A DNA stretch of 64,000 bases, from the NCBI GenBank assembly GCA_016209635.1, contig JACQWC010000013.1:12680-76679 (forward strand), read 5' to 3'. Made by a program: the position numbers and the translations under genes. The notes beneath the pieces are model-generated. The model had not been told where the DNA came from. It saw nothing but the letters and a program-made list of their open reading frames with translations, and searched no databases. The stretch is from Candidatus Rokuibacteriota bacterium (lineage in GTDB: Bacteria > Methylomirabilota > Methylomirabilia > Rokubacteriales > CSP1-6). Positions 11,740 through 59,266 of this stretch are shown here, one piece after another; the stretch's first letter is position 1, and each line of letters begins with the position of its first letter.

Positions 11740-13677
11740 TCATCCTGGAGGCATCGTCCGTCTGGCCGTGTAGCCCACATCCCCGTAGAGCAACCGCTTC
11801 ACCGGCCTGAACTCGCGAAGGATGTAGAGCGCCTCGTGCAACGGATCGGCGAGCGCCGAATCGTAGACGAGCCTCGTGCCGATGCGGCTGCGGAACATCC
11901 TCCTCGTGAACTCACTGAGCAGGGACCGTTCCAGCGTGAACCGATGAGAGAAGAACTTCGACGGTGGCTCGTTCAAGCGAACCCCGGCCAGCGAGTCGGC
12001 AAAGAGCCCCACCCGCCGGGCGACGACGAAGTGTCGTACGGTCCACGGATCGATCCCCATGATCTCGGCGCAGGCTCGCGACCCGGAGCCGATGTCCGTC
12101 GCAGCGACGAGCAGATTCATGGCCACCGCCTTGCCGGCCATCGGGCCGCTCTCGTCGAGAAAGTATGTTCCGTCGAACAGCGCCAAGCGTGGACGGAGGA
12201 GCATGTTCACGGCAACGATGGTATGCGCGAAGTCCGGATGGTACCGGAGACGCATCGGGCTCGGGATGCATCCGAACTGGTTCTTGAAGCCGAGACTCAG
12301 TCCGGTCATCGCGTGAACCTTGGGCACGGGCATCGTGATGAAAAAATCGGTCTCTTCGATGAGCAAGCGCGGCAACTCGACCGTGACCTCTCGCCCGTCG
12401 ACCTCTTGCCGACAGATCACGGCGGGAAGCTTCGTGAGATTCTCGACGTGGATCCCGTAGCGCGTCATGAGGTCGTACAGCCCGTGGGCTGCGAACGCTT
12501 CTTCAGCTTTGTACGAGTGGTACCCTCCATCCGACTCGCCGATCGTGATGTCGACGCCATAATCCCTCAGCGCCAGCACGGCCGCCTCGATGAACGCCGG
12601 CGTTGTCGTCACTCCCGGTGTCGGGTCCGGCCACGTCAAATTCGGTTTGATGAAAATCGACCGCTTGCCTCTCAGCAGGTCGCGTATCCCGAGCCACTCG
12701 AGGGCCGTCCGTATCCGCTCGACCAGTGTCTGCTGCGTGAGGTGCCCGATCCAGACAGCTGGCGGTGTCACCGCTTCGGCGCCTGCATCCGCGTGAAGGA
12801 GGTCTCTCGCGGACGCCGCCCGAAGAGGAGCCGACCGCCTGGCCCGAGCTTTCTCGTAGTACTTGGCGCTGATGAGGAACGGGTACCAGAAATGCATCAG
12901 CACCGCGTACGCCAGGCCCGGAGCGCCATCGAGAAAACCCAGTTGAATAATGTAGCGAAGGACAAAAAGAAGGACGGGGCGGACGAACATCGGGACCCGA
13001 TGCCAGATCGCCTCCCGCAACCAGCGTGAGCGCTTCAGCTCCACGTACTCCGACGCCGTTGCGCTGGCCAGCCGCCTCTTCCCAGCGCCGGTGAGGAGCT
13101 CTTCCACCTCCCATTCCGCCATCATGTTGGCCTTGGTGATCCAGGCCGTCAATCCACGCTTGTTCTCGTGAATCATGTCGTGCCGGAGCGTTTGGACCTT
13201 TCCACGGATCGCGAGATACTCGCGGCCCCCGGCGTCGATGACTCGTGCGAGGTGCTTGCGGAACAGCCGAACCTCGGGCATCGGATAGTTCGCGCCGAAT
13301 CGGAGCCAGCGACCGAGGAAGTAGAACCGACGTTTGATGTAGAACCCGTCGACTCCCTCCGGGTGACGATCGAACAGCTCGCGAATTTCCTCCAGCAACT
13401 CCGGCGTGAGGCGCTCGTCCGCGTCGAGATGCAGGACCCAGTCGTGACGGATCGCCAGGTTGTCGAGCCCCCAGTTCCGCTGAGCGGCGAAGTTCTCGAA
13501 CTGGTGGAGATGGACGTTCGACGTGTACTGCCGGGCGATCTCCTGGGTCCTATCGGTGCTGAATGAGTCGACGACAAACACTTCGTCCGCGAAGCCGGCC
13601 ACACTCTCCAGACACGGACCGATGTCGCGTTCCGAGTTGTAGCTCAGGACGAGCGCCGACAGGGGCACAGTGCCCAT
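11740..13677 (-). CDS. Fusion protein: glycosyltransferase family 2 domain + DUF362 domain
   Basis: 645 aa. The N-half (LVLSYNSERDIGPCL...HLDADERL...GFLDGAPGLAY) is a GT2 paralogous to 10806-11672. The C-half (IFIKPNLTWPDPTPGVTTTP...ITIGESDGG...PKVHAMTGLSLGFKNQFGC) matches the DUF362 pattern. Confidence 0.8.
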   Translation of the reverse strand: MGTVPLSALVLSYNSERDIGPCLESVAGFADEVFVVDSFSTDRTQEIARQYTSNVHLHQFENFAAQRNWGLDNLAIRHDWVLHLDADERLTPELLEEIRELFDRHPEGVDGFYIKRRFYFLGRWLRFGANYPMPEVRLFRKHLARVIDAGGREYLAIRGKVQTLRHDMIHENKRGLTAWITKANMMAEWEVEELLTGAGKRRLASATASEYVELKRSRWLREAIWHRVPMFVRPVLLFVLRYIIQLGFLDGAPGLAYAVLMHFWYPFLISAKYYEKARARRSAPLRAASARDLLHADAGAEAVTPPAVWIGHLTQQTLVERIRTALEWLGIRDLLRGKRSIFIKPNLTWPDPTPGVTTTPAFIEAAVLALRDYGVDITIGESDGGYHSYKAEEAFAAHGLYDLMTRYGIHVENLTKLPAVICRQEVDGREVTVELPRLLIEETDFFITMPVPKVHAMTGLSLGFKNQFGCIPSPMRLRYHPDFAHTIVAVNMLLRPRLALFDGTYFLDESGPMAGKAVAMNLLVAATDIGSGSRACAEIMGIDPWTVRHFVVARRVGLFADSLAGVRLNEPPSKFFSHRFTLERSLLSEFTRRMFRSRIGTRLVYDSALADPLHEALYILREFRPVKRLLYGDVGYTARRTMPPG

Positions 13678-33378: not shown

Positions 33379-34136
33379 CTTACGGCATCCCGCCGGGCAT
33401 ACACATCTACCACCAGCACATCCTTGAAATGGAATGTGCGCTGGCGATACTGAAGCCCGGCCGCTTCCAGTAGCGATTGGCACCGCGGATAATCAATAGA
33501 ACGCAGGTGAAATTCTCCGACGAGCACGTTCGTCCGCTCCAGAACACAGCGATACGCCGCGATCACTCCCTCCTCCGCCCCTTCCACGTCGATCTTCAGC
33601 AGATCGATTCGCCGACACTTCACGTGGGCTGCCAGGTCGACCACCGGAACCCGTCGTGTGGTCACGCGTCGCCGAGCGACCACCGCGCCCATCCCGTGCG
33701 CGTGGGGGGCATAGTAGAACTCCGCGACGCCCGAGCGCTGCAGGGAAACGACGCCCTGCACCACGCTGACTCGGGCGTCGAGCCCGTTTGCATCTATGTT
33801 CCGACGTAGCCTGCGAAGGTTTTCGGCCGCCGGCTCGATGCACAGAAACTGCGGCGTTGTCCCGGGCCGCCGTCCACGCACGTAGTGCTCGGCAAAAAGC
33901 ACGAATAGCCCGCGATTCGCGCCGAGGTCGACCACGAAGTCAAGTCGCTCAGCCAGATCGAGCGCTGGGGCGTAAGGCTGCGTAACGAAGAGCTCGCAGA
34001 ACATGTCGAGCGTCAGCCGTGAGTCAATTCCTACCTTGACCCCCGTGTCGGTTGTTAGCCAGACTGGACGGAGGCTGAGGGCATCGGGCGTCAGCCTCCG
34101 CATAAGGTTGGCGGCGCGCTCGATGACCGCCCTCAC
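33375..34136 (-). CDS. FkbM family methyltransferase
   Basis: FVVDLGANRGLFVLFAE motif and C-terminal IDLLKIDVEGAE. Start at GTG 34136 (GTGA overlap) or ATG 34103; the ORF-track extension to 34526 is rejected. Confidence 0.75.
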   Translation of the reverse strand: MRAVIERAANLMRRLTPDALSLRPVWLTTDTGVKVGIDSRLTLDMFCELFVTQPYAPALDLAERLDFVVDLGANRGLFVLFAEHYVRGRRPGTTPQFLCIEPAAENLRRLRRNIDANGLDARVSVVQGVVSLQRSGVAEFYYAPHAHGMGAVVARRRVTTRRVPVVDLAAHVKCRRIDLLKIDVEGAEEGVIAAYRCVLERTNVLVGEFHLRSIDYPRCQSLLEAAGLQYRQRTFHFKDVLVVDVYARRDAVR

Positions 34137-47288: not shown

Positions 47289-47930
47289 TCACCGCGAGCC
47301 GCAACGGACGCACAGGAGCAACAGGAGGTCCTCGGGCGCCGGGATAACGCCATGGGGCTCTTCCCGGACGAAGCTACGGAGCCCCGGCTTGCAGGATGCC
47401 CGCACGTCGCGCAGCGCGGCCTCGGCGGCTCCGACGGCGCGGCGGGCATCCTCCGCGGTGGTCTCCCCGTGCGGCAGGAGGCCTTCCTCGGTGGGGTAGC
47501 GACCGCGGTACAGCTCCACGACATCGTGACTGCGCGGCGGGCCCTGTCCCCTCCCCAGTAGCAGGGCCTTCAGGGCGCGCTCGACGCACTGCTGGCCGTG
47601 CAGGCACGCCGCGCGGTGCTTCTCGCGCTCGAGCAGAATCGCGGCACTCTCCAGCTCCTCCTCCGCCTCGCGGAGCCAGGCTTCGGTCGCCCTTCGCATG
47701 TAGAGGACCCTCCCGTGCTCGACGACCTCCTCGATGAAGGGGCTCCCCAGGGCGTAGAGGTCGCGCATCTCGCGCCGCGTGTAGACGAGGACATCGAGCG
47801 GGACCGCGCGGTCGGCAAGGAGCCGCTCGACCTCGGCCCCGCCGGTCGCGTGCGAGCCGAACAGGATGATCCGGTCGGGGTCGTAGTGGCTCACCAGGCG
47901 CTCGACGACAGCGGTCAGGGTCGTCAGCAT
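47289..47930 (-). CDS. Fused minimal nucleotidyltransferase (MNT-like) + HEPN domain protein
   Basis: 213 aa. N-part IILFGSHATGG...PLDVLVYTRREM...HGRVLY (pol-beta NTase fold). C-part WLREAEEELESAAILL...CLHGQQCVERALKALLL...RSHDVVEL...GRYP (HEPN). The usual Asp-x-Asp segment after the GS motif seems absent. Confidence 0.6.
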   Translation of the reverse strand: MLTTLTAVVERLVSHYDPDRIILFGSHATGGAEVERLLADRAVPLDVLVYTRREMRDLYALGSPFIEEVVEHGRVLYMRRATEAWLREAEEELESAAILLEREKHRAACLHGQQCVERALKALLLGRGQGPPRSHDVVELYRGRYPTEEGLLPHGETTAEDARRAVGAAEAALRDVRASCKPGLRSFVREEPHGVIPAPEDLLLLLCVRCGSR

Positions 47931-48020
47931 CAGCGCATCCTAGCACGGACCCCGGACGATCGAGGGTGTGCGCCTCTTCCCCGGCCGAGCCCGGGTGTGG
48001 ACCGTCTCTGATCGGAGACG

Positions 48021-48049
48021 GTGACCTGTGTCGCCCCGGGTGCTACGCT
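48021..48049 (+). promoter_or_regulatory. Candidate sigma70-like promoter (GTGACC-17 nt-TACGCT) upstream of the coiled-coil gene, conserved at the paralogue
   Basis: The same hexamers occur with an 18-nt spacer at 53606-53635, upstream of the paralogous gene. Flanking leader sequence is also conserved between the two loci. Confidence 0.3.
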
Positions 48050-48069
48050 CTGAGCGCCGGAGGAGGGCG

Positions 48070-48549
48070 ATGGCTGAGCCGGGTCGCCAGGACGTCACGC
48101 TGAACACCCTGCACGAGGACCTGACAGCAGGCTTCCGGGAAATGCGGGCGGGCGTCGTCGACCTCAAGGCCACGCTGACGGAAGGGTTCCAGGAGATGCG
48201 GGCGGGCTTCGCCGACCTCAAGACCACGTTGGTCGCGGGCTTCCGAGGCCTGCCGAGCCGCGAGTCGAGCGAGGAGATGGTGCGCCTGCTCCGGGAGGGA
48301 AACCGGCTGCAGGAGGCGCGGTTCGCGCAGCTCGACGTCCGCATCCGCGAGCAGCACCTGGAAACCCAGCAGATCCTCCACGCCCTGGCCGAGGGCCAGC
48401 GCGCCCTGGTCGAGATCCTCCACGCCGTGGCCGAGGGCCAGCGCGCGCTAGTCAGCGAGGTCAGGAGCCTCTCGGCTGACATCAAGGCCCTGATCGCCCG
48501 CCTCGACGCAATGATCAAGGGGCGGGGCGACGGGAGCCCGCCCGCGTAG
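48070..48549 (+). CDS. Coiled-coil repeat protein of unknown function (paralogue 1)
   Basis: ATG 48070 preceded by GGAGGAGGG. 159 aa, heptad-rich, with internal repeats (GF[RQ]EMRAG..DLK.TL twice; ILHA.AEGQRALV twice). A near-identical paralogue lies at 53656-54051. Confidence 0.6.
   Translation: MAEPGRQDVTLNTLHEDLTAGFREMRAGVVDLKATLTEGFQEMRAGFADLKTTLVAGFRGLPSRESSEEMVRLLREGNRLQEARFAQLDVRIREQHLETQQILHALAEGQRALVEILHAVAEGQRALVSEVRSLSADIKALIARLDAMIKGRGDGSPPA
48373..48456 (+). repeat. Perfectly in-frame 42-bp tandem duplication inside the coiled-coil gene
   Basis: Units 48373-48414 and 48415-48456 (ILHALAEGQRALVE / ILHAVAEGQRALVS). The paralogue at 53656-54051 has a single unit. Confidence 0.8.
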
Positions 48550-53152: not shown

Positions 53153-53494
53153 ATGGCAGAACCCGACCGCGGAGAGGTCTGGCTCGTGGACCTGAATCCG
53201 GTGCGAGGCCACGAGCCGGCCGGCGTCAGGCCCGGGCTCGTGATCTCGGTCGATCCCTTTAACCACGGTCCGGCCGGACTCGTGGTGCTGCTGCCCCTGA
53301 CGATGGTCGCGAAAGGGATCCCCCTTCACGTCGAGGTGAACCCCCCCGAGGGAGGTGTGAGGACGACCAGCTTCGTCAAGTGCGATGACATTCGCTCCGT
53401 CGCCAAGGAGCGCCTGTCCCATCGCTGGGGAAAGGTCTCGACGGCGACGCTCGCGGCCGTCGAGGACCGGCTCAGGATCCTTATGGGCCTGTAA
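53153..53494 (+). CDS. mazF: MazF/PemK family endoribonuclease toxin
   Basis: 113 aa. RGEVWLVDLNPVRGHEPAGVRPGLVIS...LLPLT is the hallmark MazF/PemK N-terminal pattern. Confidence 0.9.
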   Translation: MAEPDRGEVWLVDLNPVRGHEPAGVRPGLVISVDPFNHGPAGLVVLLPLTMVAKGIPLHVEVNPPEGGVRTTSFVKCDDIRSVAKERLSHRWGKVSTATLAAVEDRLRILMGL

Positions 53495-53498
53495 GCCC

Positions 53499-53552
53499 CA
53501 TCAGCCGACCATCGCGGGAATCGATGCCCTCGTCCAGACCGGTCTTGCTCCA
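53499..53552 (+). repeat. Internal fragment of an RHH gene duplicated from (or related to) 52229-52282
   Basis: It encodes HQPTIAGIDALVQTGLAP, against HQPTIAGIDVLVQTGLAP in the intact gene. Only a handful of nucleotide differences over 54 nt, with no start codon or complete ORF. Confidence 0.6.
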
Positions 53553-53605
53553 ACACAGAACGAGGCCGCCGTCACCCCATGACCTCCTGTCTCCGATCAG
53601 CGACG

Positions 53606-53635
53606 GTGACCCGGTGCCCGCCGGGGTGGTACGCT
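53606..53635 (+). promoter_or_regulatory. Candidate promoter (GTGACC-18 nt-TACGCT) upstream of coiled-coil paralogue 2
   Basis: Conserved counterpart of 48021-48049. Confidence 0.3.
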
Positions 53636-53655
53636 CGGAGCGCCCGAGGAGGACC

Positions 53656-54051
53656 ATGGTTGAGCCGGGCCGCGAGGACGTCACGCTGAACACCCTGCAC
53701 GAGGATTTGACCGCGGGCTTCCGGGAGACGCGGGTGGAAATGCGCGCGGGTTTCGCCGACCTCAAGGCGACGCTGGTCGCGGGCTTCCGGGGCCTGCCGA
53801 GTCGCGAGTCGAGCGAGGAGATGGTGCGCCTGCTCCGCGAGGGAAACCGGCTGCAGGAGGCGCGGTTCGCGCAGCTCGACCTCCGCATCCGCGAGCAGCA
53901 CCTGGAAACCCAGCAGATCCTCCACGCCGTGGCCGAGGGCCAGCGCGCCCTGGTCAGCGAGGTCAGGACCCTCTCCGCGGACATCAAGGCCCTGATCGCC
54001 CGCCTCGACGCAATGATCAAGGGGCGGGGCGACGGGAGCCCTGCCCCGTAG
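53656..54051 (+). CDS. Coiled-coil repeat protein of unknown function (paralogue 2)
   Basis: ATG 53656 preceded by GAGGAGGA. 131 aa, collinear with 48070-48549 except for two 14-codon indels. Confidence 0.6.
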   Translation: MVEPGREDVTLNTLHEDLTAGFRETRVEMRAGFADLKATLVAGFRGLPSRESSEEMVRLLREGNRLQEARFAQLDLRIREQHLETQQILHAVAEGQRALVSEVRTLSADIKALIARLDAMIKGRGDGSPAP

Positions 54052-54226
54052 GCTTCAAGCCTGCGCCCGCCTGGCCCGGCTCCCCTGAGGGGACCCGGAC
54101 CGCGAGGCGCGCTTCCGTGTGGGCGACCTTGGCCTCTTTGAATCGACCGCTTTCCTGCGATAGAGTTCCCGCGGCGGTCCTCAACCCGAGCGCCGGGGAT
54201 CGCATCGGAGCGTCCGGAGGGGACAT

Positions 54227-54880
54227 GTGAGCTTTGTCAATGAAGGTCGATCGCCGGTCCGGCCGGGCGAGCCCGCGCCGGACTTCACCCTGGCCGCCGC
54301 GCACGCGACCGGCACGGTCTCGCTCGCGGACTACCGCGGCCAGCGTCCGGTCCTGCTCGTGCTCCTCCGGGGGCTCTACTGACCCTTCTGCCGGCGACAC
54401 GTCGTGTCGCTCGGGGTCACGGCGGAGAAGCTCCAGCGGGTGGGCGTCGCGACGCTCGCGGTCGTCGCGACCGCTGCGGACCGGGCGCGCCTCTTCTTCC
54501 GGTTCCGCCCGCCGCGGGTCCCGGTTGGCGCCGACCCCGATCTCACGACCCATCGGGCCTATGGACTGCCGAACATGGAGCCGAGCCAGGAGCTTTGGGC
54601 CGCGATCCAGAACGTCGCGTCGACTCTCTCCCGCGAGCTGAACCTGGGCGTCCCGCCGGACGAGGCGTATGCGGCCATCGACCGGCTCGACGGCTACAAG
54701 AAGGACCAGAGCGACACCGCGGATCTCGAGCGGCATCGCGCGCAGGGCACCGGCCAGTTCCTCGTGGATGCGAGCGGGACAGTCCGCTGGGCGAACATCG
54801 AGTGCGCGCGCGAGGGGCTGGCGGGCGTCGACAAGTTCCCTGCGGACGAGGAGCTGCTGGCGGCGGCCCGCGCGCTCTGA
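54227..54880 (+). CDS. Peroxiredoxin-like (AhpC/TSA-redoxin, thioredoxin fold) protein with in-frame TGA at the CxxC position: candidate selenoprotein (U-P-F-C)
   Basis: GTG 54227 after GGAGGGG. The frame reads ...PAPDFTL...VSLADYRGQRPVLLVLLRGLY-TGA(54380)-PFCRRHVVSL... and continues in the same frame as ORF 54404-54880. The paralogue at 58622-59266 has the same TGA. Confidence 0.65.
54393..54411 (+). promoter_or_regulatory. SECIS-like hairpin 10 nt downstream of the in-frame TGA
   Basis: GGCGACAC-GUC-GUGUCGCU: 7 Watson-Crick pairs plus a G-U, with a G-first apical loop 19 nt after UGA. The 23 nt around it are identical in the paralogue, while flanking synonymous sites differ. Confidence 0.5.
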
Positions 54881-55273: not shown

Positions 55274-58200
55274 CTAGCCGAGGAACGGCAGCACGACCAG
55301 CGAATCGGGCTCGAGCCCCGCGCGCTCGCAGACCTCCTGCGCCTTGAGCATGTAGGCCTCCGCCCGCGCCTCGTCGCCCAGATCGAGGTGGAGCGTCGCG
55401 AGCCCGTCGTAGCAGGGGAACAGGAGCTGAGGCTCGCCCATCCGCTCGGCCAGGGCCAGGGCCTCACCGTAGTAGCCGAGCGCCCGCTCCGTCTCGCCCT
55501 CGCACTGATAGATCTGGCCGAGGACGATCAGCGGCACCGCGAGGTGGTCGAGCTGACCGAGCTGCCGATCCAGGTCGATGGCCTGGAGCGCCGCCTGGAT
55601 GCCCTCCTCCTCGCACCGGTCGGTGAGCGCACAGTAGGCGACGGCCAGGTTCGCGTAGAGCCATGACTGGAACCCGAGGTCCCCAATCTTCCGGGCGGTC
55701 TCGAGGCCGGTGAGGCAGGTGTCGATCCCCTTCCGCGGATCGACCTGGCTGTGGAGGACGCCGAGGTTCGTGTAGGCCCGGCAGGCGACGCGGAGGAGGT
55801 CGTGCGCGCGGGCGACCTCGACGCTGCGCTCGATCTCGCTGATGGCCCGCTCGCGCTCGCCGAGGCGCGCCCAGGCGACGCCGAGGGTGTTGCGCGACTG
55901 GGCGATGACGGCCGCGGCCTCGGCACCGACCGCCTCCGGGCCCTCCCCTCCCGCCCTGTCGAGGGCGTGCTGCGCCAGCGTGAGGGCCTGCTCCGCCCAC
56001 TCGATGGCCCGGGGGTTGTCGCCGCTGCGAAACGCGAGCCGTCCCATCTCCTGGAACAGGTGGGCGCGCTCGATGTCGTGAGTGCCGGGGGCCAGGACCT
56101 CGAGCCCGCGCTGGAAGGCCTCGAGCGCCCGCTGCCGCTCGCTCGCGTCCCAGAGGAGGCCCCCGACCTTCCGGTGCATCCGCCCCTGGATCTCCGCGTC
56201 GCCCAGCTCCTCGGCGCGCGCCAGCACCGCCTCGTAGTGCTCGAGCGCCGCGCCGCGCTGCCCGGTCAGCGCGAGCAGGTCGCCGAGGCGCTCCCTGACC
56301 TCGAGCTCTTCACGCTCGTACCCGGCGCACCCGGCGATCGTCTGGAAGGCGAGCGCATAGTGCCGGAGGGCGTCGTCGTTGGCGTAGACCACCCGGGCCC
56401 GGTCGCCGGCCAGGAGGAGGTAGCGGACGCCGCGCGGGCGATCACCGCTCAGGCTGAAGTGGTGCGCGAGCGCCTCGATCTCCTCCAGCCGGTGAGGGCG
56501 CCCGCCACAGAGCACCTCGAGCCCCTCGCCGGCCCGGCGGTGGAGCTCCGCGCGCCGGCTGAGGAGCACGTTCCCGTAGACGACCTCCTGGATCAGCGAG
56601 TGAACGAAGCGATACCTCGGCTCGCCGCTCTCGGCGCGCGCCCGAGGGACCTCCTCGACCAGCTCGACCTCCTGCAGCAGGTCGAGCGCCGAGTCGAGGG
56701 CGTCACCGATATCGGAGACGATCCGCAAGAGCGCGAGGTCGAAGGTGTCGCCGAGGACCGCGGCGTCCTGGAGCACGCGCCGGGCGGGCCGCGGGACGCG
56801 GTCGATGCGTGAGAGGAGGAGCGCCTCGATGGTTCGCGGCACGTCGACGACCGCGTCGCCCTGGGCGCACGCCCAGCCCTCGCCCTCGCGCCGGAGCACG
56901 CCGCCGGCGATCAGCTCGCGGACGATCTCCTCCAGGTAGAGCGGGTTCCCGCCGGCGCGCTCGACGACGAGGTCCCGCAGCCGGTCCGGGATCCGCGGCA
57001 ACGAAGCGTGGAAGAACGCCCCGAGGATCCGCGCGGCCTCCGACCGGCCGAGGGGCGCGAGCCGGATGATCGTGCTCGTCACGCGGGCCGTGACGAGCCC
57101 CTGCGCCTCGAAGCCCGGCCGGTGCGTGACGAGCACCATGAGCGGCCGGGCGGCGAGCCGGTCGGCGGCGAACCGGAGCAGCTCGACCGAGGCCGCGTCG
57201 GCCCAGTGGAGATCCTCCACCAGGAGCAAGAGCGGCCCCTGCTCGAGCCGCCGCTCGAGGAGCCGCCGCGCCGCGAGGAAGATCTGGCGCTTGAGCTGCT
57301 CAGGCTCGACGTGGCGCACGGCCTCCTCGGAGGCGAACCCCTGGACCCAGGCCAGGATCGGGGTGATCGCGGAAGCCTCGGCCTCGCCGATCCCGATCTC
57401 GCGGACGCCGGCGACGACCCGGTCGGCCGCCGCCGCCGGCGTGTCCTCCCCCGTGATGCCGAAGGCCTGCCGGAGGAACGCGGCGAAGACGCCGTAGGTC
57501 TGCTCGCCGAGCGCGCTGCACACGGCGCGCCGTACGGTGACGTCCCGCAGCCGGCCCTCCGCCTCGAGGCCGCCGAGGAACTCGGCCAGGAGGCGGGACT
57601 TGCCGACGCCGGCCTCGCCAACCAGGCTGACGACCTGGGCCGAGCCGGCGAGCATCCGCTCGAAAGCGGCGTGCAGCTGGCCGAGCTCCTCGTCGCGCCC
57701 GACCAGCGGCGCCACGAGCCCATGCGCCTCGAGGCCGCGGAGCGGCTGGGGCGCTTCCAGCGCGGACAGCAAGCGGTAGGTCGGCACCGGCTCGCGCTTG
57801 CCCTTGACCGTGAGGGCCTCGGCGGGGTCGAAGCCGAAGGCATGCTCGGTCAACCGGTGCGTGCTCGCGGCCACCAGCGTCTCGCCTGCCGCCGCCGCGG
57901 AGAGGAGCCGGGCGGCGGTGTTGACGGTGTCGCCCGTCACCGCATACGCCGCGCTTGCCGCCGCCCCCAGGGTGCCGGCGACGACCGGCCCGGTGTTGAC
58001 GCCGACGTGCAGCGCCACCGGCGACCCGAAGCAGGGCTCCCACCGCGCGGCGAGCGGCCGCATCTGCGCGTGCATCGCGAGCGCGGCATGGAGCGCGCGC
58101 TCCGGGTCGTCCTCATGCGCGCTCGGCGCGCCGAACACGGCCATGACCGCGTCGCCGACGAACTTCTCGACGAACCCCTCGTACCGCTCGACGACGCCCG

Positions 58201-58543
58201 CCAGAGTCGCGAAGAGGTCGCTCTGGAATGCGCGGACGTCCTCCGGATCGAGCCGCTCGCTCAGCGCGGTGAATCCGGAGAGATCGGCGAAGAGCACGGT
58301 GACAGCGCGGCGGTCGGTGTCCGGACGGGCCTCGCCGCGCGGGGCGGCCGCCGCCGGCGGCGGGGCCGTCGGCGCAGGGTCCGGCGACGGGCCCGCCAGT
58401 CTGGCGCCGCACTTCGGGCAGAACGCGAAGTCCGGAGCGCAGGCGGCTCCGCACCCGGGGCACAGGACGGGAAGCCGCGCGCCACACTTCGGACAGAAGG
58501 CGAAGTCCGGCGAGGCCTCGAAGCCGCAGCCCGTGCAGGTCAC
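55274..58543 (-). CDS. Multidomain signalling protein: double zinc ribbon + class III adenylate/guanylate cyclase + AAA/STAND-type ATPase + TPR repeats
   Basis: 1089 aa. CTGCG...CPKCG...CPGCG...CPKCG; cyclase block RRAVTVLFADLSGFTALSERLDPEDV...GDAVMAVFG; P-loop LVGEAGVGKSRLL; the C-terminal ~450 aa are TPR-like. GTG start. Confidence 0.9.
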   Translation of the reverse strand: MTCTGCGFEASPDFAFCPKCGARLPVLCPGCGAACAPDFAFCPKCGARLAGPSPDPAPTAPPPAAAAPRGEARPDTDRRAVTVLFADLSGFTALSERLDPEDVRAFQSDLFATLAGVVERYEGFVEKFVGDAVMAVFGAPSAHEDDPERALHAALAMHAQMRPLAARWEPCFGSPVALHVGVNTGPVVAGTLGAAASAAYAVTGDTVNTAARLLSAAAAGETLVAASTHRLTEHAFGFDPAEALTVKGKREPVPTYRLLSALEAPQPLRGLEAHGLVAPLVGRDEELGQLHAAFERMLAGSAQVVSLVGEAGVGKSRLLAEFLGGLEAEGRLRDVTVRRAVCSALGEQTYGVFAAFLRQAFGITGEDTPAAAADRVVAGVREIGIGEAEASAITPILAWVQGFASEEAVRHVEPEQLKRQIFLAARRLLERRLEQGPLLLLVEDLHWADAASVELLRFAADRLAARPLMVLVTHRPGFEAQGLVTARVTSTIIRLAPLGRSEAARILGAFFHASLPRIPDRLRDLVVERAGGNPLYLEEIVRELIAGGVLRREGEGWACAQGDAVVDVPRTIEALLLSRIDRVPRPARRVLQDAAVLGDTFDLALLRIVSDIGDALDSALDLLQEVELVEEVPRARAESGEPRYRFVHSLIQEVVYGNVLLSRRAELHRRAGEGLEVLCGGRPHRLEEIEALAHHFSLSGDRPRGVRYLLLAGDRARVVYANDDALRHYALAFQTIAGCAGYEREELEVRERLGDLLALTGQRGAALEHYEAVLARAEELGDAEIQGRMHRKVGGLLWDASERQRALEAFQRGLEVLAPGTHDIERAHLFQEMGRLAFRSGDNPRAIEWAEQALTLAQHALDRAGGEGPEAVGAEAAAVIAQSRNTLGVAWARLGERERAISEIERSVEVARAHDLLRVACRAYTNLGVLHSQVDPRKGIDTCLTGLETARKIGDLGFQSWLYANLAVAYCALTDRCEEEGIQAALQAIDLDRQLGQLDHLAVPLIVLGQIYQCEGETERALGYYGEALALAERMGEPQLLFPCYDGLATLHLDLGDEARAEAYMLKAQEVCERAGLEPDSLVVLPFLG

Positions 58544-58621: not shown

Positions 58622-59266
58622 GTGACTTCCCCCGACGGACGCCAGTCGCCCGTTCAGCCAGGAGAGCCGGCGCCGGACTTCGTCCTGCCGGCCGCGCACG
58701 CCGAGGGCACGGTTTCGCTGTCCGGGTACCGAGGGCGCCGCCCGGTCCTCGTGGCCCTCTTCCGCGGCCTCTACTGACCGTTCTGTCGGCGACACGTCGT
58801 GTCGCTCGGCAGCACGGCGGACAAGCTCCAGCGCGAGGGCGTGGAGACCCTGGCGGTCGTGGCGACGGCGCCCAGCCGCGCACGCCTCTACTTCCGCTTC
58901 CGCCCCTCGAGGATCCCGGTCGGCGCCGATCCCGAACTGGTCACCCACCGCGCCTACGGCCTGTCGAGCGGTCCCCTGACGCCCGAGGTGAGGGAAGCCA
59001 TCGAGGCCGCCGCGCAGCGGCTGGCCGGCGAGCTGAAGTTGCAGATACGCCCCGACGGAGCCCTCCAGGCGATCGCAGGGCTGGACGGCTGGCAGGTCGA
59101 TGCCAGTGACGGGGACGCGAGCCACGCCCAGCTGATCGGACAATTCCTGGTGGACGGAGACGGCATCGTCCGCTGGGCCAACGTCGAGTGCGCGCGGGAC
59201 GGGCTCGCCGGCATCGCCGGCTTCCCGACCGACGAGGACCTCCTGGCCGCGGCGCGATCGCTCTGA
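58622..59266 (+). CDS. Peroxiredoxin-like protein with in-frame TGA at the CxxC position: candidate selenoprotein (paralogue 2)
   Basis: GTG 58622, 8 nt after AAGGAGGA. The frame reads ...PAPDFVL...VSLSGYRGRRPVLVALFRGLY-TGA(58775)-PFCRRHVVSL... and continues in frame with ORF 58799-59266. Confidence 0.65.
58788..58806 (+). promoter_or_regulatory. SECIS-like hairpin downstream of the in-frame TGA (paralogue 2)
   Basis: Same GGCGACAC-GUC-GUGUCGCU hairpin at the same offset from the TGA as at 54393-54411. Confidence 0.5.

Follow-up and report, generated by a model that had tools for sequence, protein, structure and literature searches.

The DNA considered here is a stretch of 64,000 nucleotides from a contig of Candidatus Rokuibacteriota bacterium (JACQWC010000013.1), called the window in what follows, with a G+C content of 67%. 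It carries two paralogous genes, copy 1 and copy 2, for redoxins of the peroxiredoxin (Prx)-like type that are predicted to contain selenocysteine (Sec, U). Their coordinates are collected in Table 1. As read by translation of the window, copy 1 is open throughout except for a single in-frame TGA; the frame runs PAPDFTL...VSLADYRGQRPVLLVLLRGLY up to this codon and resumes with PFCRRH. Copy 2 also has one in-frame TGA, and in both genes the codon stands at the first cysteine (Cys) of a CxxC motif. Between the two copies, identity amounts to 82% for the DNA and 65% for the protein. On an identical public contig (L001), the gene caller also chose the GTG at 54227 as the start of copy 1, but the gene is represented there by two calls, one of 51 amino acids (aa) ending at the TGA and one of 158 aa beginning at an internal GTG (position 54404). 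A preliminary description of the window had proposed this start, preceded by a good Shine-Dalgarno sequence, the in-frame TGA followed by PFCRRH and a frame open to 54880, a diverged paralogue with the same TGA in an open frame, and the splitting of such genes by gene callers. All of these points are borne out.

Table 1. Features of the two redoxin genes and of the gene lying between them (positions in the window)
Feature	Position	Strand	Remarks
Shine-Dalgarno-like GGAGGGG	54216-54222	+	4 nt ahead of GTG 54227; read from sequence
Copy 1, full-length Prx-like selenoprotein gene (predicted)	54227-54880	+	217 aa including Sec52; GTG start; TGA stop 54878-54880
Sec codon of copy 1 (UGA, predicted), first position of UxxC	54380-54382	+	Aligns with Cys of homologues
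TGC, second (resolving) Cys of UxxC	54389-54391	+	C55, invariant in alignment A3
Element of copy 1 resembling a bacterial selenocysteine insertion sequence (bSECIS)	54386-54427	+	Lower stem 54386-54393 : 54420-54427
Upper stem of the copy 1 element	54393/54394-54400 : 54404-54410/54411	+	Apical loop GUC 54401-54403
Zinc-ribbon / adenylate cyclase / AAA_16 / TPR gene	55274-58543	-	1089 aa; Pfam; between the copies
Copy 2, paralogous selenoprotein gene (predicted)	58622-59266	+	214 aa; GTG start after AAGGAGG
Sec codon of copy 2 (UGA, predicted)	58775-58777	+	Position matches copy 1 TGA
bSECIS-like element, copy 2	58781-58822	+	Upper hairpin 58788-58806; loop GUC 58796-58798

The residue that relatives carry at the position of the TGA is informative. 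A search of 5.8 billion proteins returned 2118 matches to the window redoxin. The best full-length homologues are about 218 aa long and 53-66% identical, and where named they belong to Rokubacteria, Methylomirabilota or NC10; the full-length identity of copy 1 to the 218-aa Cys homologues is 58-66%. Among the best 120 of the 2118 matches, the column of the TGA is occupied by the Cys of a CxxC motif in 116 and by U in none, which agrees with the earlier placing of the TGA at the CxxC cysteine of the family. The sole truncated protein among these 120 (P0001, 158 aa) corresponds to the product that would start at the internal GTG 54404. At the DNA level, one genome per species of GTDB was scanned with the motif GGN NTN TAY TGA CCN TTY TGY CGN CG (GxxY-TGA-PFCRR). 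Thirteen loci, the window itself not being one of them, were found in 12 genomes: 11 metagenome-assembled genomes (MAGs) of the Rokubacteria/Methylomirabilota type, with CSP1-6 carrying two copies, and one Anaerolineales MAG with a shorter relative. Frames are open and conserved on both sides of the TGA in all 13 loci.

A scan of metagenomes used TGH instead of TGA in the motif and was hence blind to the codon at the Cys/Sec site. It was observed that distinct members of the same family carry TGA (at least 25), TGC (at least 45) or TGT (at least 23) at this position, so that the alternation of Cys and Sec anticipated in the preliminary description is indeed found. Distinct Sec forms with open frames number at least 35. 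Of 35 Sec forms placed by neighbour joining, 32 group in one clade of the tree, which encloses a single Cys form and in which the two window copies are adjacent to each other. The residues after the motif also differ, with RR[HQ]VVxL in the Sec forms and RRAIAQ or similar in most Cys forms. The predicted Sec clade is widespread in Rokubacteria/Methylomirabilota of soil and groundwater.

Immediately downstream of the TGA, the mRNA of both copies can form a hairpin, GGCGACAC-GUC-GUGUCGCU, located in copy 1 at 54393-54411, 10 nt 3' of the TGA. This hairpin is contained in a run of 23 nt following the second Cys codon that is identical between the copies, whereas the codons just ahead of it differ synonymously (CCC TTC TGC in copy 1, CCG TTC TGT in copy 2). 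Numbering from the T of the TGA as 0, a lower stem is formed by +6 to +13 with +40 to +47 and an upper stem by +13/14 to +20 with +24 to +30/31, the GUY loop occupying +21 to +23. The constraints described for bSECIS elements are an apical loop of 3-9 nt with a G in its first two positions, an upper stem of 4-16 bp, a distance of 16-37 nt from the UGA to the loop and a minimum free energy of -7.5 kcal/mol or lower (PMC13188914). The element of the window lies within all these limits, with its GUC loop, 7-8 bp, 18 nt from UGA to loop and -10.9 kcal/mol for the hairpin or -20 kcal/mol for the whole element. The position of the hairpin, its G-first loop and its suitable distance, as well as its identity in the paralogue behind differing synonymous codons, had been noted beforehand and are confirmed. 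Among 200 shuffles of the 19-nt hairpin, one was as good (z = -3.45). The minimum free energy of the whole element is -20.0 kcal/mol in copy 1 and -19.9 kcal/mol in copy 2 (z = -2.37). Folding energy alone is nevertheless weak evidence because the DNA is so rich in G+C.

Comparison of family members is more telling and indicates that the hairpin is more than a product of chance. With 31 distinct Sec forms, RNAalifold recovered both helices, and pair counting gave 90% of cells paired, as against 28-63% in slid registers. Columns 18:28 hold a compensatory pair, G-C in 26 sequences and A-U in four, including both window copies, and several one-sided changes, such as U-A to U-G, preserve pairing; columns 17:29 are mismatched in many Sec forms. 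At a fixed register, 30 of 32 distinct Sec forms have at least seven of the eight upper-stem pairs, as against 2 of the 68 distinct Cys forms, and a GUU or GUC loop is found in 30/32 and 4/68, respectively. Codon third positions that fall in the stem are nearly fixed in the Sec forms, being G in 34/35 and 30/35 for the Arg-Arg pair and in 34/34 for Val, whereas all four bases are used at the Arg-Arg third positions of the Cys forms. Third positions in the loop and the internal loop vary freely. When all 16 codons after the TGA are compared with codons elsewhere, synonymous conservation is not significant (p = 0.24), only the paired positions being constrained. Two divergent Sec forms (L029 and L040) have different hairpins, which are similarly spaced from the TGA and likewise carry a G within the first two positions of the loop.

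A covariance model of the element, used to scan the window, found copy 1 and copy 2 with 72 and 63.7 bits, respectively. Weak matches to the model were also observed at 12384-12432 (+), which is the next in rank with 18 bits (rough E 0.005), and at 34037-34077 (+), with 15.7 bits (0.025). These are probably chance matches because most genes were mapped on the minus strand there. Rfam, searched at a permissive threshold over 54300-54500, gave only noise, a general bacterial SECIS model being absent from this database.

The pattern of substitutions between the two copies bears on whether the DNA ahead of the TGA is translated. Synonymous divergence (dS) is 0.86 and the ratio of nonsynonymous to synonymous divergence (dN/dS) is 0.31 overall; it amounts to 0.23 in the 51 codons that precede the TGA and to 0.34 in those that follow it. 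Hence, purifying selection has acted on both halves, which implies that both parts have been translated for a long time. In the codons of the SECIS-like element, dS falls to 0.28, as compared with 0.93 elsewhere.

For profile searches, U was replaced by C in both proteins. The Pfam family AhpC-TSA (PF00578) is reached with 55.6 bits by copy 1 and 52.3 bits by copy 2 (cutoff 26), and the AhpC-TSA and Redoxin matches cover residues 13-124, that is, they extend across the TGA at residue 52. With PF13911 (PRX_like2 / AhpC-TSA_2; CDD cd02970), copy 1 reaches 23.2 bits, the cutoff being 27, and copy 2 has no match; some homologues carry this domain, and the NCBI name of one of them is 'peroxiredoxin-like family protein'. 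The nearest NCBIfam profile is that of SelL-related redox proteins (NF040769), with 59.3 and 51.1 bits. Since these scores are below the cutoff of 120 and the match is partial (profile positions 2-102 of 173), neither copy is a member of that family. The PrxU family (NF040737) is not reached either, with 21-25 bits against a cutoff of 270. The preliminary description had called the position of the TGA that of the peroxidatic or CxxC cysteine. The second half of this label stands, but the first does not, as the PxxxT/SxxC(U) peroxidatic signature is absent: VLLRGLY precedes the U, and both the Pro of position -7 and the Thr of position -3 are missing. The term 'peroxiredoxin-like' is therefore to be read as denoting thioredoxin/TlpA-like CxxC chemistry, and the redox site, in which a second Cys of the CxxC type follows, looks like that of a disulfide oxidoreductase rather than that of a peroxidase.

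The fold was viewed in a model computed with AlphaFold for P0002, the nearest homologue with Cys (65% identical; mean predicted local distance difference test score 91.9). This model shows a thioredoxin/peroxiredoxin fold in which the CxxC motif is placed at the N-terminus of helix 52-69, Cys51, the equivalent of Sec, directly preceding the helix. Three additional helices (about residues 120-169) are inserted between core strands, before the last beta-hairpin. In fold it matches 2-Cys peroxiredoxins, AhpE, Bcp, DsbE and ResA, the TM score being about 0.6 relative to the query and 0.7-0.8 relative to the target. Sequence matches in the PDB are weak, comprising thioredoxin-family, DsbE and AhpE entries with E about 0.002-0.006, and align the CxxC motif with WCxxC. 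No signal peptide is apparent in the window proteins. Both are best described as putative thioredoxin-type UxxC thiol:disulfide oxidoreductases. Shorter Prx-like genes (about 157-190 aa; L008, L033, L037/L128) occur in other lineages, among them one Anaerolineales MAG; they share G-[LF]-Y-U-P-F-C-R-R, with TGA for U, and score 64-80 bits, below the NF040769 cutoff.

In our opinion, both genes are very probably selenoprotein genes in which UGA is read as Sec and which have been missed by standard pipelines. The Cys of the homologues, the TGA recurring in a conserved frame, the selection acting on both halves and the conserved hairpin of SECIS type, present mainly in Sec forms, all point in this direction and support what the preliminary description had put forward. 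In such a model, UGA would be decoded as selenocysteine during translation. The intragenic hairpin would act as a bacterial SECIS and bind SelB carrying Sec-tRNA(Sec), which SelB would deliver to the ribosome while the UGA occupies the A site. The products would be full-length thioredoxin-fold oxidoreductases of the AhpC/TSA superfamily with a U-P-F-C redox centre. Their Sec would be located at the N-terminus of helix alpha-1, at the position of the nucleophilic Cys of thioredoxins and peroxiredoxins, and may cycle with the Cys three residues on via a selenenylsulfide.

Other explanations of the TGA have to be weighed. The outcome obtained with gene callers is exactly the one to be expected if the TGA were a true stop, the genes being pseudogenes or split genes from which only the C-terminal 158 aa, translated from GTG 54404, or nothing would be made; moreover, a single-base change converts TGC or TGT into TGA. 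Such an explanation is very unlikely, however, considering that two paralogues separated by a dS of about 0.86 share the codon and that at least 35 distinct genes, drawn from independent assemblies, carry it without any other stop or frameshift. A sequencing error and a recent pseudogene were rejected as well. In addition, a protein started at 54404 would be devoid of both redox residues, of the first two strands and of the helix start of the fold, and its GTG is embedded in the 3' arm of the hairpin. The dN/dS upstream of the TGA also counts against the alternative, considered from the outset, that this part of the gene is untranslated. As for readthrough of the TGA by a near-cognate or suppressor tRNA, for instance one for Trp, or a code that uses TGA as a sense codon, these are generic alternatives for any in-frame TGA and nothing specific speaks for them here. 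TGA terminates about 22 of the 31 Pfam-supported genes of the window; being thus the ordinary stop, it excludes a reassigned genetic code, which was rejected on this ground. Furthermore, the in-frame TGA is found only at the column of the catalytic Cys, where Trp or Gly would abolish the redox centre. Decoding of this sort is scarcely credible.

A subtler alternative is that UGA and hairpin do function in recoding, but that the amino acid inserted is cysteine, brought by a SelB-dependent allo-tRNA of the tRNA(ReC) type, so that an ordinary CxxC protein would result. Decoding of UGA as Cys by means of such tRNAs and a SECIS occurs in several uncultured phyla (PMC13582414), and insertion of Sec and of Cys are indistinguishable from sequence. 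These tRNAs are, however, mainly encountered in genomes with UxxU motifs and in about 2% of other Sec-type genomes (PMC13582414), and no tRNA of this type was found in the window or in the related loci examined. Besides, the lasting upkeep of a UGA and a SECIS, when a single base separates the codon from TGC or TGT, speaks for a product other than the Cys protein. We therefore give this possibility very little credence.

Several observations weigh against the selenoprotein assignment itself. Folded in a 51-nt context, the element of copy 1 is unremarkable (z = -0.84; copy 2, -3.44). Covariation is thin, with one compensatory pair only, because the element is strongly conserved in sequence. Phylogeny confounds the association of the hairpin with the TGA: parsimony counts about four changes of the Cys/Sec state, and since the codon and the hairpin both characterize a single clade, the contrast of 30 Sec forms to 2 Cys forms does not stand for 30 independent events. 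Cys forms nested in or adjacent to the Sec clade (P0002/L138, L135, L017, L067 and P0003/L139, with TGT or TGC) keep 6-8 of the eight upper-stem pairs, and their comparison shows that the hairpin by itself does not predict a TGA. These nested forms are apparent recent reversions from Sec to Cys in which a fossil SECIS would persist. Finally, the machinery for Sec insertion was not encountered in the DNA examined. ARAGORN and Rfam found no tRNA, nor any other Rfam match, in the window, and Pfam identified no sel gene among about 40 window genes. The related loci, 669 kb in all, yielded no selA, selB or selD when the E. coli proteins SelA, SelB and SelD were used as tblastn queries, and no tRNA-Sec with ARAGORN.

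On the side of the phylum, a Methylomirabilota MAG is mentioned as predicted to have 63 selenoprotein genes in a 2026 review (PMC13188914), which cites Deng et al. 2026. Methylomirabilota are also listed as one of the phyla in which group 4 hydrogenases of the Sec type occur, the genomes concerned mostly carrying selABCD (PMC13582414). In the papers searched, no description of Rokubacteria selenoproteins was found. Two further candidate selenoprotein genes, of thioredoxin fold and with a TGA, were observed in the related loci. One, on the minus strand of L094 (index 8579 of the reverse complement), reads LRHYG-U-IFC and attains 122.5 bits with NF040769, against the cutoff of 120; the other, on the plus strand of L012 (index 5899), is a second Prx-like paralogue with GLE-U-GFC. 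These candidates and the two reports on the phylum offer indirect support for the presence of Sec machinery.

The surroundings of the redoxin genes were also compared. The gene that separates the two copies encodes a large protein with zinc-ribbon, adenylate cyclase, AAA and TPR domains; it is divergent from copy 2, with a spacer of 78 nt, and tail-to-tail with copy 1. In many loci, full-length orthologues of this cyclase, typically 40-60% identical over long alignments, adjoin members of the redoxin family (among others L003, L007, L012, L013, L053, L070, L085, L089, L127, L138 and L139). Upstream flanks of 400 nt or more were available for 82 distinct family members; a cyclase orthologue was directly upstream in 48 of these, either co-directional and adjoining by its 3' end (42 cases) or divergent from the 5' end (6 cases), and such adjacency is seen for Cys and Sec forms alike. 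This conserved neighbourhood suggests a functional link between cyclase and redoxin, which may constitute a two-gene module. It may even be imagined, though we regard the idea as rather improbable, that the selenol redoxin and the cyclase form a redox-signalling module, in which the redoxin would sense the oxidant or thiol status or pass it on to the cyclase, for example by way of the Cys-rich zinc ribbons of the latter, so that redox state would be coupled to cyclic AMP signalling in Rokubacteria, and in which Sec would provide the reactivity needed in oxic soil. Clustering of neighbouring open reading frames (ORFs) gave no consistent partner other than the cyclase, MsrA being present in 4 loci only.

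The remainder of the window may be described briefly. The ORF just upstream of copy 1 (53524-54051, +) is not conserved near other members of the redoxin family; it has a paralogue at 48028-48549 (+), 78% identical over 156 aa, and both encode helical, coiled-coil-like proteins with no Pfam match. Close to the redoxin genes are also found a gene for a toxin of the MazF/PemK type (53153-53494, +) and a HEPN-domain gene (47289-47939, -). On a matching contig (L002), a small ORF ahead of mazF may encode an antitoxin. The minus strand of positions 1-47300 is devoted to a long biosynthesis cluster of the polysaccharide/O-antigen type, with GT1, GT2 and GT4 glycosyltransferases, a Wzy-like polymerase, an MBOAT protein, a carbamoyltransferase, a DegT aminotransferase, epimerases, nucleotidyltransferases and GtrA.

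Prx-like selenoproteins with a UxxC site were already known in 2004, and no new mechanism is put forward here. As standard annotation splits or truncates these genes, however, the whole Sec clade is missing from protein databases. Among the soil and groundwater metagenome matches listed, it would make up roughly one in four distinct members of the family. Restoring the genes corrects the proteomes of Rokubacteria/Methylomirabilota and adds direct sequence evidence that a phylum abundant in soil uses selenocysteine. With its many Sec and Cys forms, among them the apparent reversions, the family further provides a natural series that may be used for studying how Sec is gained and lost. Its usual association with an orthologous adenylate-cyclase/AAA/TPR gene is a new observation.

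The closest known systems are the Prx-like thiol:disulfide oxidoreductase selenoproteins (PF00578, UxxC/UxxU; Kryukov and Gladyshev, 2004), which are listed among bacterial selenoproteins as 'predicted with high confidence' (PMC13188914, PMC9312934), in line with the premise of the preliminary description that UxxC proteins of this kind exist in bacteria. Like these, the window genes score above the PF00578 threshold, have UxxC at the thioredoxin-type CxxC site, possess an intragenic SECIS-like element directly after the UGA and have Cys-containing homologues. On the basis of their sequences, they are a new subfamily of this long-known group, distinguished by a length of about 218 aa and, in the model, by the three-helix insertion. 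Unlike the group as a whole, the subfamily is mainly confined to Methylomirabilota/Rokubacteria. The SelL-related proteins of NF040769 and the eukaryotic and marine SelL likewise have a thioredoxin fold with Sec in the CxxC position, but SelL has two Sec residues (UxxU) where the window genes have one (UxxC). PrxU of Eubacterium acidaminophilum (NF040737; PxxxTxxU) shares with the window proteins the AhpC/TSA fold and the location of Sec at the start of helix alpha-1. The latter have L-R-G-L-Y before U, without the Pro at -7 and the Thr at -3, and contain in addition the second Cys of the CxxC type.

Among solved structures, those of the TlpA/ResA/DsbE type (PDB 3kcm, 3gl3 and 2h1b) and AhpE (1xvw) are the closest both in sequence (E about 0.002) and in fold (TM scores of 0.5-0.6 for the query, 0.7-0.8 for the target). 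All these differ from the window proteins in having Cys instead of Sec and no helical insertion, and identities are only 12-23%. TlpA and ResA are moreover extracytoplasmic, in contrast to the window proteins, for which no export signal is apparent. With respect to the RNA element, the SECIS of E. coli fdhF is an intragenic hairpin that follows the UGA directly, with a small apical loop containing G-U and an imperfect upper stem. The window element has no sequence similarity to it, and its loop is of 3-5 nt (GUY, either closed by a C-G pair or open). Both are alike in their position 3' of the UGA within the ORF, in the small G-U loop and in an imperfection of the upper stem, which in many Sec forms is the mismatch at columns 17:29; binding of SelB by the window element is a prediction.

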